A stretch of 64,000 bases of DNA from Escherichia coli (GCF_044324785.1 NZ_CP172127.1); one strand, 5' to 3'. Counted from the stretch's first letter, positions 45,801 through 64,000 are shown. Numbers are program-made.

Positions 45801-48800
45801 CAAACCGGCGAATATCAAACGCGTCATAGTCAAAAACTGCGACGACATCTGGCTTTGCTCCATGATGTATTGCGCGCAGACCCCTGAACTTCCCCACAAC
45901 ACGGCGGCAATCAGAACGTTCAGCATCCCCTTTCTGGTGGAACCCATTTTTCCCTCTGCATACTGTTTTGTCGTTTATCTATGCAGGCATGATAGCAAAA
46001 ATGGCGAGGATGGCTCTGTTTGCGCCACGCCGATTTTTCTTAGCTCAGACTGGTGAGCTAAATATCTTTAATAAACAGCAGACAAATCATCGCAATACCC
46101 AGCATTCCTATCGCCAGCCAGAACAACGCGTGGTAGCTCCAGATTTCAACCATAATTCCGTCAACAGAGCCGGCGATAATCCAGCCGACACGTGAGGTAT
46201 TTGCATATAACGTTGTCGCAGAGCCTATTTTTTCAGGCATCAGATCCTGAAAATAAAGCATGCCGATACCACAGAGAATACCAAGGAAGATGGCATTTAG
46301 AATTTGCAATTCCAGCTCAACTGCCGGAGTTGTCGCCATGAGTACGCTGGTGTAAAAACACATTCCACTCACGATAGCAATGAGCATTAATAGTCGCTTA
46401 CCAATACGTTTCATGTAATAGCCTGCGATTAACATCATCGGAATTTCCAGACCGGCAGCGATACCAATCATTTCTCCAGCCAGTTTATCGGTTAGATGCA
46501 GTTCATCAATAATAAATAGCGGCATATTTATCATGTAGAGATTATTCGCCGCCCACATCATTGAACAGACCACAAAAAGTAGCCGCGTATCCCGCTTCCT
46601 ATGGGTGGAGGGTAAAATTTCTATGGGTTGGGTAACGACAGGAATATTTCTTTGTATTGATGGCAAAAACAACCAGACTATCAGTCCGCAAACAACAAAT
46701 GCGATGGCAGCGGTGAGATACATCACTTTAAAACTAAATCCCATTGCCAGTTCATAAGCGAGCGGTGGCCCGATAACCCAGGCAAGCGAGATCTGAGCAC
46801 GTAAAAATGTACTGAACATGACCGTCTCACGGCCTGTTCTGTCGGCGTGTTCACGGGCGAGGGCGAACATTTGCGGGTTTGCAGTGGAAGCAAAACTACT
46901 CAGAAGTACGCCCGTTGAGAGGAGAATGAAGTAGTTGCGATTCCACGCAAAAAGCGTGCAGGCCAGCACTCCAAATAAGCAACATAGCAGGATCAGTAAT
47001 TTACGGTCGCCTTGTTTATCGGAGTGTCTTGCCAGAAATTGACTGACCAGAATTCCCATAATAGCGCTACCGGTGAAGAAAAAACCTACCATTATAGGAC
47101 GAGCTTTCAGTTCATCTGCGAGGAATATACTTAGGGTAGGAGTCTGAAGAGCGCCCGCAATACCAGTCAGAAAGGCGACAAGTAAAAATGCCGCGGCAGT
47201 GAGATCAAGTATTTTTGATGGAGTGGTAGCCGTTTTTTGCATTCTTCTGAATCACCGGGCGACAAAATATAACTGAGTTACAAATAAGTACCAGTCGAAT
47301 GAGTATTGTATTAAGAATTTTTGAGTATCGCTGATACAACCAGAAATCAATGCTAGCGCAATATTATAGGGCCAGCAATTGAGATTATTAGCAAAAGCAT
47401 GTTAAGAATTAATTACCGAATTTATATATTAATTATATTAAGGCATTGAGCTATTTTTGATAGTAAAAATAAAACAAGTTGATTTGATATATTAAATGAA
47501 TAAATTAATCTTGATGGCAGTCTGATTATTGGTGAAGTTTATAGGTCAGTTTTTTCGCCAGCGGTTAAAGAAATAGAATCGTCGTATAAAAAAGGGTGTT
47601 CTGGGGCGAGTAAAACAACATCTTCACCTTAATGGCGATACAGTTGGCTGAGAGTCAGCAGGGGGGCAAACCACCTGCAAATAAACACGGCGCATGCTGG
47701 CGCGAATATCGCGGATGCGTTCGAGGACAGAAGAACCGACAGGCGGATTCTTCAGTCGCTCATCGTCCATCACAAAACCTTTGATCAGGTATTCCTGAAG
47801 CCGATTGAATATTGAGCAGTAGAAAATCTCTGGATTGACAGTATTACAAGGGGTTGGAGAATGTCAGAAGAGGCATTTTGGCGGAAGATCACAGGAGTCG
47901 AATATGAATGTTAATGTTTTGATTTTAAATGATTAATCTGTGTTGGATAAATGAGTAACCCCCATAAGAACCCCCAAATAACTTTGTGTAAGGGAATGAA
48001 GCTAAAATACACAATCGAATCAATTCTTAGAGCTTTATTATGAAGGTAACACTCCCGGATAGTGTTTCGCAATAATATCATTCAGCCTGTCAACCAGTTC
48101 TGGTTTCCTGAACCTGATGTGCGCGGAGCCTTTCTTAAAGTATCTGATGCTGAACATCTCATCTTCATAGCATTCTTTACCCTGAACAGACCGGATGTGA
48201 TCATCCAGACGAATAGTGATGTTTTCCCGGTTGTCGGGGATCGGTTTGCCGCTGAACAGATGTAGCATTCTTTCCAGGTCGACGAGTCGGTCAGTCTGTT
48301 GCCCGGTGATAAGATGAAACCCCCACCGGTCCCACCTCACCAGGTTGTTGACGATAATTTTACTGCCAAATTTGCAGGGGCAATTGGTTTTGTAATTCCA
48401 GCTCAGTCCCCTGAAGACGTTGATCACCCCTCGCTCAAACACCTCATCCTTATTCTGGTGTAGTTGTTCAAATGTGATCAGAATGTTCGCTTCACTGATT
48501 TCCGGAAAATTATCGTACTCCAGTGACCGGTACCATGTATCACGGGCCTGTGCATCCATTAAGGAAAGCATCCCTGAACGTTGCATCAGGTCACGCCAGA
48601 TTTCGCGATCGAGATTGCGTGTGATGGCTTTCATTGCGGTTTCCGGTTTCTCCATCAGCCAGCAGCCGCAGCGAAAATCCTGTTTCATGGCCCAGCCCGG
48701 GGCGGCTTTACCGCCAATACTTTCTGTCATTGCTGATATTTCAGCCAGTTGCCGGATAAGTGTGTCGATTTGCAGCAGTGTACTCTTTCGTACAGCCAGA

Positions 48801-51800
48801 ATGTGGCGGATACTGGTTGAGCAGATAACGTCCGTATGCCCGGTGACCACTTCCGGACGGGAGATTGTGATGTCTGACATTATCGGTTTCCCTTTTGGTT
48901 TATAAACGAAAACGCCAGCCCTGTTCAGGCTGGCGTCAGTGGAATGAAGTATGGTGAGTGAGGCTCACGCGCTCAGGTGAATGAGTTGCAGGTGACGCAG
49001 GGTGCGGACATCCTCCCTGGCCTGTTCGATACAGGGCAACAATGCTGCCGAATCCGTTTTATCCTCATCGTTGTCGAAAATAATTCCGGACCCGCAGTCG
49101 ATATTGTCCTGCAGCCACGCAATGAGGATATCCAGCGCTGTTTCAGTGGTTAATGGCATCACGCTCTGTATCACTGTATTGTCTTCCGGCAACTGATGAG
49201 AGCTGGCAGAAGTCGCCGGTGTTTCGGTAGCGTCACGTTCATCCACCACGCGGAGTGAATAACCGTTTTCAGCGACCTTGTTAATCAGTTCAGTGAGCTC
49301 AACACCATCAATGTCAACGACAATTCGCCCTATATTCAGTGCCTGTACGTTAACGCTGTCTGCTTCCAATGTCAGGGCCAGTTTCATCATTTCGCCTCCG
49401 GATACTTACCCAGGGTAATGTTATTTACCGTTCTGTAATTGTCGCGGGTCATCAGGCCGGTCGCCCTGCGAGCCCGGAGGATATCGATGCTGTTTATTAA
49501 CTGAGAGCGGGTACAGGCGCTGAATCCCGGCTGGTTGGTACGCACCAGCGCGTATTTTTCCACGAGAAAGTTCACCGCATCACACAGTGAAATGCCTGCC
49601 TCAATATGCAGCTCAATCACGCGTTCATCCGCGAACGGTGTGTCATTCAGCGTAAGGCTGTAATGCTGGTCCAGTAACCGGGTGAGCAGTGTCTGCCAGA
49701 TGGTGACGGGAGACGGGCAGCACGATGCCTCCCGTACATGCGTGTCGGGTAATGTTTTCATAATGAAGATTTTCCTGATATGCAGAGATAAAAAATGGGA
49801 CAGTGGCGTGGTGAAAACACCAGGCCGGAGCAGAAGATTATTCTGATGATTTACTTTTTCGTTTCGGGCGTCGGATAAACAGCCAGATAAACGTAACCAC
49901 AGGAGCCGAGGGTGTCGGCTTCACAGGTCAGCCCCTTCGCATACAGTGTCACGGTATGCTGATGGCGGGGATTCAGTTCACCGCTGGTGAGCATGAGCTC
50001 CAGTTGTTTCATCGGCAGCGGAAAGGCCTGGTCCGGATGGTACGCATCCGCATCTCTGAACCGGCCTCTGATACCGGCACGGTCGGCAAGGTAATGCAAC
50101 CGGTTACCCTCCTGCACCAGACGTGCCCCGAAACAGGGCGTCACGGTGCAGGGCAGTCCCCACCAGAGGCGGTCGTGATTGTCGTCGTGATGCGTTGTCC
50201 CGGGGAGTGTGTCTGACACGATAAAATCCTCACAGAAAATCGTTGAATGATAGTTTAACTTTGACAGGTCAGCCGGTGCGCAGACCGGCTTCGGTGAAGG
50301 TGTATTCGTTGATGAGAAGGGCCTCATCCACAGGGGCATCTGAGGTCAGCCTGTTGTGCTCGTTTTCCAGTTGACGGTACAGCCATAAGGCCAGGTCGCG
50401 CAGGGCTTCGCTGACAGCGGCTTCCGCATCTGTTGTCATAGTCTGACCAGTCGGACTGTTCCGGGTAACAGTGATATCCATGCTGTACGGATGGCAGTAG
50501 CGTCCCCGGCGGTGGATTTCAGCCTGCAGTTGCCAGAAGTTACGCTTCTGCACCGCCTGCAGGGCATCCGCGATACGATGGAGTTCATGCTCCTGTGGGG
50601 CATACTTCCGGATTATCCGGGCTGTCGCCGGCTGCCAGTGCCAGCGTCCTTCAAAACAGGCTCCGTCCCCCTGGCTGCAGCATCCGCTGAACCAGATGCA
50701 CGGCTCTTCCATAAACCTGCCGTTGCTGAGCCGGAAAACGCGCTGGCGGAGGTCAATTCCGAAAATGTCACAGACCGCCCTGAAGTCCTCATACACGTTT
50801 TCATACCAGTTGCTGTCAGCATGATGCTGACGGTACCCGTCGCGGGCTTTTCCCCGTACCGGGCAGGAAAGTTCATCCAGCGTATACACTGTGATGGTGA
50901 TAATGCTGCTCATCAGAATCCCCTTTCTGATTCAGTTCAGGGTGACGCTCATCAGCCGGACATACGGGCCAAAACTGTCCTTACGGCGTTCAGCAAACAC
51001 GGCCAGCACACCGGGAATATCCTGTACTTCACGACCGGTATACGTCTCAGCACTGCCGTGCCAGCGGTACTTACCGGTGCAGAACGGAAATAGACGGGAT
51101 GCAGGATGCTGTTGGTGAATACGCATGGCTTCACCACGGGTGATAATTTTCATAATGGGATACCTCTGAAGACAGAAGATAAAAGTGAAAACAGGTGTGA
51201 TGTGGTTGTGACGGGTTAAAGCAGACCATGTTCGGCAAAGGAGAAAACCTGGCTGCCACCGACTATCAGATGGTCCGGCACCCGGATATCCACCAGGCCC
51301 AGTGCCTGTACCAGACGTTCCGTGATAAGGCGGTCTGCCTTGCTGGGTGTGACTTCACCGGACGGGTGATTGTGCGCCAGCACCACGGCAGCGGCATTGT
51401 GGTACAGGGCGCGTTTAATCACTTCCCGGGGATGGACTTCCGTGCGGTTGATGGTGCCGGTGAAGAGGGTTTCACCGGCAATCAGCTGATTCTGGTTGTT
51501 CAGATACAGCACCCGGAATTCTTCACGCTCCAGTCCCGCCATGTTCAGAATCAGCCATTCCCGTGCCGCATGCGTGGAGGTGAAGGCCACGCCGGGTTCA
51601 TGAAGATGGCGGTCCAGGGCTTTCAGGGCCCGCTGAATGAGGCTGCGCTCTCTGGTTGTCATTTCTCCGGGCAGAAAGGAAATCTGTTGCATTGTTCCGG
51701 CCCCCTTTCAGTCAATGATGCGCATAATGGCGCTGCATTCCGGATGCTGCAGGGCGTAATCCCGCAGACGGTAATAATGAACCGTCATGGCATAACACTC

Positions 51801-63800: not shown

Positions 63801-64000
63801 ATCTGATGGGCGAGGGTATTGATCAGCTTCTTATTTCTGTTAAGTAACGCAAAATGCTGCTCATCAAAGCCGCCGGCGACGTGGCAGAGCTCCAGCTCTT
63901 TGCCGGGCGGCTGTCGGCTGCCCTGGGTTGAGCACTGTTCGCTGTTGTGTAGCTCCCAGAAGCCGTCGCCTTTCAGGCGCCAGAAGGGCATGTCCGGCCG

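Follow-up and report, generated by a model that had tools for sequence, protein, structure and literature searches.

Genomic islands that occupy the 3' end of selC, the tRNA-Sec gene, are well described in Escherichia coli and Shigella; a review places the LEE, PAI I536, SHI-2, tia and LAA islands at this locus (PMC7545054). Saile et al. (2018) reported that selC insertions end with a 24-bp direct repeat, itself part of the K-12 tRNA gene, in GIselC17584/1 and in an avian selC island they also described, besides a CP4 integrase, a second repeat pair, TTTGGGGGTACTTTAGGGGGT/TTTGGGGGTTCTTATGGGGGT, close to both ends (PMC6174562). Here we describe a 64,000-nucleotide (nt) stretch of an E. coli chromosome (GCF_044324785.1, NZ_CP172127.1), hereafter 'the window', which is numbered along one strand and in which the last 16.1 kb are the distal part of an island of this kind. 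The published selC islands with a CP4-type integrase (GIselC17584/1, avian AGI-3/EPI-I, SHI-2, LPA, LEE, PAI I536 and the tia PAI) have the same attachment site, the same distal 24-bp repeat and the same TTTGGGGGTTCTTATGGGGGT motif as the window, and they share with it a distal block comprising a KlcA antirestriction protein, a YeeU/YeeV toxin-antitoxin pair and a putative methylase (PMC6174562, PMC7545054). Unlike them, the part of the island within the window is without LEE, aerobactin, haemolysin or Tia genes and has instead a phosphorothioate-dependent restriction endonuclease; in its relatives, the region beyond the window's extent encodes an HNH endonuclease and a sugar cluster (GH43, MFS, xylA and porin genes), again unlike the cargo of the published islands. 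We conclude that positions 47879-47902 are very probably the attR core (the distal attachment site) of an island integrated at the 3' end of selC through site-specific recombination by a tyrosine recombinase. As such, the feature is a selC island boundary of an ordinary and known kind, both the 24-bp repeat and the terminal motif having been published before.

The core itself (47879-47902, minus strand) is an exact, 24/24-nt direct repeat of the selC 3' end, taking in part of the T-arm, the acceptor stem and the CCA. Its sequence, TTCGACTCCTGTGATCTTCCGCCA, is that of the final 24 nt of E. coli tRNA-Sec and occurs as a single exact copy in the window when both strands are compared; allowing up to three mismatches still returns just this one selC 3'-end site, and no other selC k-mers of 12 nt or more are present elsewhere in the window. 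None of 100 dinucleotide-preserving shuffles matched the selC 24-mer (chance expectation 0), and the length of the repeat is that of the published selC repeat (PMC6174562). The CCA end of the fragment faces lower coordinates, i.e. the setC side. A preliminary description of this DNA had already recognised the last 24 nt of tRNA-Sec pointing towards setC, and the exact copy is as described; the coordinates given there (47878-47901) were one base off. It had also recommended a tRNA scan, and neither ARAGORN nor Rfam finds a complete tRNA in the window: ARAGORN reports 0 tRNA genes across the whole 64 kb, whilst Rfam gives no tRNA in the window at the gathering threshold and nothing in the 47-64 kb interval at E ≤ 0.1, its sole match over the window being istR (8057-8186). 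Only 24 of the 95 nt of tRNA-Sec are therefore to be found here, and the window holds no complete cloverleaf with a UCA anticodon of the kind that a functional tRNA-Sec would have.

Comparison with unoccupied sites places the edge of the island precisely. On the backbone side, the site is flanked by setC (46058-47242, minus strand, from annotation and comparison with K-12), and the K-12 selC-setC spacer aligns to the reverse complement of window positions 47243-47902 without rearrangement. The 5' edge of the 24-mer is the precise point at which homology to K-12 ends: there K-12 reads ...GGCAGG/TTCGAC... and the window ...TTCATA/TTCGAC... (the stroke marking the edge). A much closer relative, the draft genome L006 (GCA_034497305.1), was reached via an exact match to the SetC protein of the window; it shows 0 differences from the window over 39891-47902 (8,012 nt), also 0 over 34859-38696; its tRNA-Sec is intact, and it carries no island at the very point of the window's junction. 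Both K-12 and L006 thus provide an empty attB (the unoccupied attachment site) with an intact tRNA in a close relative, and the breakpoint of homology with either is 47902/47903. When the window (attR) is aligned with L006 (attB) and with the selC-proximal junction (attL) of strain ES1, which carries a closely related island, the three share an identity core of exactly 24 bp, with backbone on one side and island on the other. The distal boundary is, in other words, marked by a direct copy of the target tRNA's 3' end. These comparisons bear out what the preliminary description had proposed, namely the distal att repeat of a tRNA-integrated island followed by accessory DNA to the end of the window (47903-64000 is absent from both K-12 and L006), and the selC-setC comparison with K-12 that it suggested shows a collinear spacer and a break in homology at the inner edge of the 24-mer.

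Further records with the same backbone add to this picture. Two of them, L007 and L008, have the window's backbone with 0-1 differences, but their islands diverge from that of the window by ~7% from 5 nt inside the junction onwards. A single clonal backbone (0-1 differences in 8 kb) is therefore associated with at least four selC states, the empty site and at least three island variants, which argues strongly for a recombination junction at 47902/47903 and also suggests rapid, continuing turnover of selC islands within one lineage. In a BLAST survey of 5,426 complete E. coli genomes, 715 had the junction type of the window and 2,490 an empty site of the K-12 type; the highest identity to the flank of the window was 98.7%. 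The identical backbone and the near-identical island are known from different records, never together in one.

The likely arrangement of the far end comes from complete genomes that carry the island. Between 48000 and 64000, the window differs from ES1 and an ST38 sister record at 67 positions, 63 of which fall within a 0.5-kb patch at 52.0-52.5 kb; outside this patch the islands are ~99.97% identical, and the adjacent backbone differs by ~1.6%. In ES1, an intact tRNA-Sec (4869021-4869115) lies at the far end of the island, ~41 kb from the distal repeat, and after it comes the gene for a 394-amino-acid (aa) tyrosine recombinase, a position that corresponds to ~25 kb past the end of the window. 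EC0585 encodes the same integrase protein and has its tRNA-Sec ~29 kb from the distal repeat, equivalent to ~13 kb past the window end. The integrase of these relatives has the P4-type architecture Arm-DNA-bind_3 + Phage_int_M + Phage_integrase, and that of ES1 is 40% identical in aa sequence to CP4-57 IntA; selC lies contiguous with this type of integrase in 1,518 of the 5,426 complete genomes, O157:H7 included (89% nt identity). An ungapped search had suggested that ES1 was without a distal repeat, a suggestion that we rejected on alignment, which shows the repeat to be present with a 1-nt deletion. Intact selC and integrase are seen in every complete genome examined that carries the island, and from these relatives we infer that, in the genome of the window too, both should lie beyond 64 kb.

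Drawing these comparisons together, we favour a model in which the attP of a circular element would contain the tRNA 3' end as a 24-bp copy, and in which a P4/CP4-type integrase would exchange strands inside the 24-bp identity segment, between attP and the attB in selC. Integration would then rebuild an intact selC at the integrase-proximal attL, beyond the window, and would leave the 24-nt partial copy at the distal attR, next to the yicT-setC backbone. The terminal motif TTTGGGGGTTCTTATGGGGGT is found by sequence match at 47958-47978 (minus strand), just inside the island; its partner, TTTGGGGGTACTTTAGGGGGT, sits 111 nt past selC in ES1, and TTTGGGGGTTCTTATGGGGGT is also kept in a degenerate island terminus in strain CEA601S (see below). 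Terminal motifs of the TTTGGGGGT type may be arm-type sites for the integrase. We would also expect the AlpA-like protein encoded by the island to act as an excision factor, and the island may still be able to move.

Two other histories could be envisaged for the junction. A pre-formed selC::island locus might have been imported by homologous recombination of flanking DNA, the repeat being an inherited scar, and some of the observations above would sit comfortably with such an event: the island is near-identical (~99.97%) to that of ES1/ST38 despite the ~1.6% difference in backbone, and must therefore have moved between lineages; the same backbone bears three different island variants; and the 52.0-52.5 kb patch bears clear signs of recombination among paralogous modules. 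However, on the setC side the window and the empty-site genome L006 are 100% identical all the way to the 24-mer, and so no donor flank has been co-imported there, which is the expectation for site-specific integration and makes import less likely on that side; overall, we consider it improbable. The 24-mer might otherwise be what is left of a selC truncated by deletion or rearrangement, with no intact selC at the far end. The selC fragment is indeed the only one visible in the window, and IS2 and other scars of rearrangement are present in the island, but the same junction occurs in ES1 and EC0585, both of which have an intact tRNA-Sec and an integrase at the other end, the fragment has the length of the published 24-bp att repeat, and the junction is common to the 715 genomes noted above; truncation is accordingly very unlikely.

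Integration at selC by a tyrosine recombinase thus remains our preferred explanation, although certain points weigh against it. The window itself holds no selC and no integrase, the far end having been read from relatives, and the distal repeat of ES1 carries the 1-nt deletion already mentioned. There are, in addition, signs of decay and mosaicism within the island (IS2 lacks a perfect target duplication, the ProQ/FinO gene is a pseudogene, and a remnant of another island's tail is present in inverted orientation), and the present-day mobility of the island is uncertain.

The spacer between the repeat and setC contains a second feature that the preliminary description had drawn attention to, a RhuM-like gene remnant, which it read as a sign of an earlier occupant of the same site. 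The remnant is real: approximately at 47672-47806 (minus strand), outside the island, an internal fragment matches Pfam PF13310 (Virulence_RhuM) with E=1e-12, covering model positions 50-98 of 252. Its translation reads ...LQEYLIKGFVMDDERLKNPPVGSSVLERIRDIRASMRRVYLQV..., with stop codons at both sides, so that this is a gene fragment of ~45 codons and not a functional member of the family with a full RhuM domain. PGAP annotates a partial rhuM pseudogene at this position in both ES1 and EC0585, and the fragment is collinear and orthologous with the K-12 pseudogene yicT. It is also found at the empty sites of K-12, L006 and L009, and we therefore regard it as conserved spacer, with no trace of this strain's own history; an ancient event, by contrast with a strain-specific one, is plausible. 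In Salmonella, SPI-3 likewise has RhuM-family sequence immediately downstream of selC, whereas in the window there is just the ~45-codon fragment, which is placed outside the present island and kept at empty E. coli sites.

Whether an ancient element at selC left yicT behind as a decayed trace, stranded between a regenerated tRNA end and setC before the split of K-12 and this strain, is a finely balanced matter, on which we lean slightly towards such an occupant. That the remnant is an internal fragment of RhuM, and that rhuM is carried by SPI-3, the Salmonella island at selC (PMC3680342), are consistent with this origin, as is the arrangement in CEA601S (L005, NZ_CP166713.1; 4031-6449), where an intact rhuM (345 aa) separates selC from a degenerate island terminus and a degenerate selC repeat that reads TGCGACTCCTGTGAT----CGCCA; beyond the repeat come a gene for a 165-aa hypothetical protein and then yicL, setC being missing. 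Against it stand the occurrence of the remnant at those three empty sites and its identity to the CEA601S gene of just 77% at the nt level, with a 24-nt deletion. Nor did fuzzy matching, blastn-short or Smith-Waterman alignment reveal a further, degenerate copy of the selC repeat in the stretch from the remnant to setC, the best local alignment in this interval scoring 9 as compared with a shuffle mean of 7.9 and a shuffle maximum of 12; in-situ decay of a long-resident gene is a possible alternative.

Turning to the island itself, the segment from 47903 to 64000, which continues past the window, is most readily compared with CP4-57, the K-12 cryptic prophage at ssrA, and with its relatives CP4-44 and CP4-6, all of which have the same collinear module of genes for a GTPase, a DUF932 protein, an antirestriction protein, RadC, a DUF987 protein, an antitoxin and a CbtA-family toxin. 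By tblastn against CP4-57, these seven module genes are in the same order in the window, at 36-78% aa identity. All of them are on the minus strand, and the block that they form is preceded, on the side of the attachment site, by two further minus-strand features. Last in the island is a DUF4942 (methyltransferase-like) gene (48038-48880; PGAP annotation of ES1, Pfam and PHROG), next to which are an open reading frame (ORF) of 141 aa for a DUF5983 N-terminal region (48965-49390; PF25638, the same 141-aa ORF being present in comparison record L012) and, within the module, the CbtA-family toxin (49387-49761; 64% aa identity to YpjF of CP4-57) and the CbeA/YeeU-family antitoxin (49851-50219; 67% to YfjZ). 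A 214-aa hypothetical protein (50269-50913; phrog_5162) separates these from the DUF987 protein (50932-51153; 62% to YpjJ) and the RadC/JAB-domain protein (51216-51692; TIGR00608, 149.8 bits; 78% to LfgB/YfjY). The antirestriction (KlcA/ArdB-like) protein (51708-52193; 73% to LfgA/YfjX), which is inside the patch that differs from ES1, is followed by the DUF932 protein (52285-53103; 75% to YfjQ) and a YeeP/YfjP-like GTPase (53289-54173; 36% to YfjP).

Exact-protein look-ups were also made for the YfjJ-like protein and for the antirestriction variant. The exact variant of the antirestriction protein encoded in the 52000-52500 interval recurs widely in paralogous CP4-type modules elsewhere in the chromosome, which suggests gene conversion between paralogous islands.

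Likeness to CP4-57 extends to AlpA-like and YfjJ-like genes and, in ES1, to the P4-type integrase. On the plus strand are a gene for a YfjJ/YagK (inovirus Gp2-like) protein (57712-58443; 30% aa identity to YfjJ), one for a hypothetical protein of 190-200 aa (58770-59372; PGAP annotation of ES1), a third for an AlpA-like helix-turn-helix (HTH) protein that is a putative excisionase or regulator (59441-59677; PHROG excisionase families, PF05930), and a fourth for a YagK/YfjJ-domain (UCP030791) protein (59878-60426; PGAP annotation of ES1). As well as residing in selC rather than ssrA, the island in the window differs from CP4-57 in that its alpA- and yfjJ-like genes are on the strand opposite the GTPase block, and in that the slot for abpAB and rnlAB holds two unnamed convergent genes. 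We considered whether the plus-strand alpA/yfjJ-like genes could belong to a second, inverted element, and rejected this, as distant elements show the same arrangement.

Towards the end of the window the island becomes less regular. A frameshifted ProQ/FinO-family pseudogene (60444-60952, minus strand; PGAP annotation of ES1 and a profile match) is followed by a 1331-bp copy of the insertion sequence IS2 (61285-62615, minus strand; NF006918 and NF006928, with its ends read in the sequence), the flanking pentamers of which, TTCAG and TTCGG, are not identical. IS2 directly abuts a 304-nt inverted copy (62615-62918, plus strand; 86% identity) of the DUF4942/DUF957 region at 48750-49053, annotated by PGAP as partial pseudogenes. 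The insertion sequence and the abutting copy indicate an IS-associated rearrangement and a remnant of the tail of a second CP4-type island, and the non-identical pentamers together with the inverted remnant therefore describe a mosaic, partly decayed element. The window closes within a gene whose start is beyond it, for a phosphorothioated-DNA-binding (ScoMcrA-like SBD-HNH) restriction endonuclease, of which the C-terminal 216 aa are encoded at 63341-64000 (minus strand; NF045808, 323.5 bits; PADLOC HNH). Across the island segment, the G+C content (GC) swings between 0.38 and 0.56; this composition, unlike that of the backbone, accompanies the mobility and accessory content already listed (the AlpA-like gene, IS2, the toxin-antitoxin pair and the antirestriction gene).

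The two unnamed convergent genes lie between the GTPase and a 1.6-kb, ORF-poor stretch (56102-57711). The first ORF encodes a protein of 317 aa (54276-55229, plus strand), the second one of 262-291 aa with a conserved, ribbon-helix-helix-like C-terminal tail (55226-56101, minus strand), and their stop codons overlap by 4 nt. The family of the 317-aa protein is tiny (41 cluster representatives among 1.84 billion), and the protein has no match in Pfam, PADLOC or PDB; its structural model (predicted local distance difference test, pLDDT, of 82) has no informative structural relatives. A homologue of 33% identity nonetheless occurs in the same context, i.e. GTPase, gene, convergent partner with a 4-nt overlap, and AlpA- and YfjJ-like genes; the convergent partner is kept in L021 and L024, and distant enterobacterial CP4-type elements have the pair, at 26-34% identity, beside the same neighbours. 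In K-12 CP4-57, the slot that the pair fills holds abpAB and rnlAB, which encode the anti-phage systems AbpAB and RnlAB, and other islands have different unnamed genes there. We offer, as a tentative suggestion only, that the pair could be an uncharacterised functional module of CP4-type islands, with a role in defence, anti-defence or maintenance.

The remainder of the window is E. coli chromosome, with backbone blocks that are 96-98% identical to K-12 and a gene order that runs from emrD/tisB-istR/ilvBN through uhp, ade and nepI to yicS-nlpA-yicL-setC. Relative to K-12 there are four insertions, at 10503-13865, ~22898-23739, 25017-43701 and from 47903 onward, the last being the selC island. 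That at 10503-13865 is a 3.3-kb segment of low GC (0.34-0.41) between ilvN and uhpA, present in 449 of the 5,426 complete genomes, with two ORFs of 433 aa (10753-12054) and 498 aa (12269-13765) that PGAP lists as hypothetical and for which neither NCBIfam nor PADLOC has a match. Between yicN and nepI, a block of ~0.84 kb that is not in K-12 (22898-23739) contains two overlapping minus-strand ORFs, one (22938-23261) for an HTH protein of 107 aa and of MqsA/NadS antitoxin type, the other (23245-23604) of 119 aa; the two look like a toxin-antitoxin pair.

The largest of the other insertions, 18.7 kb between nepI and yicS (~25017-43701), is likewise not in K-12 and is an eip/eilA/iatC type III effector and inverse-autotransporter island. 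It encodes IatC (eaeX-like), the HilA-family regulator EilA, homologues of translocon and needle-tip proteins (YopB/SseC, IpaD/SipD), and a SycD/LcrH chaperone, is ~91% identical to ES1 in part, and reaches a GC of 0.62 over the repetitive adhesin gene. Within it, a 1195-bp IS5 (38696-39890; terminal repeats GGAAGGTGCGAA..., CTAA target duplication) interrupts a 376-aa gene in the eip cluster, one that has the SipB/YopB-like gene on one side and the IpaD/SipD-like gene on the other; this IS5 is missing from the otherwise identical backbones of L006, L007 and L008.

Our analysis fixes the boundary at 47902/47903, assigns the accessory DNA to a selC island that resembles CP4-57, and predicts where its selC and integrase are located. 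As selC is a classic integration hotspot (LEE, SHI-2, PAI I536), the boundary in itself has little significance beyond annotation. That the RhuM remnant is a species-wide yicT relic and not a strain-specific trace is of some modest value. So is the backbone on which the island sits: one clonal lineage that is represented both by an empty site and by three island variants amounts to a natural record of recent turnover at selC.

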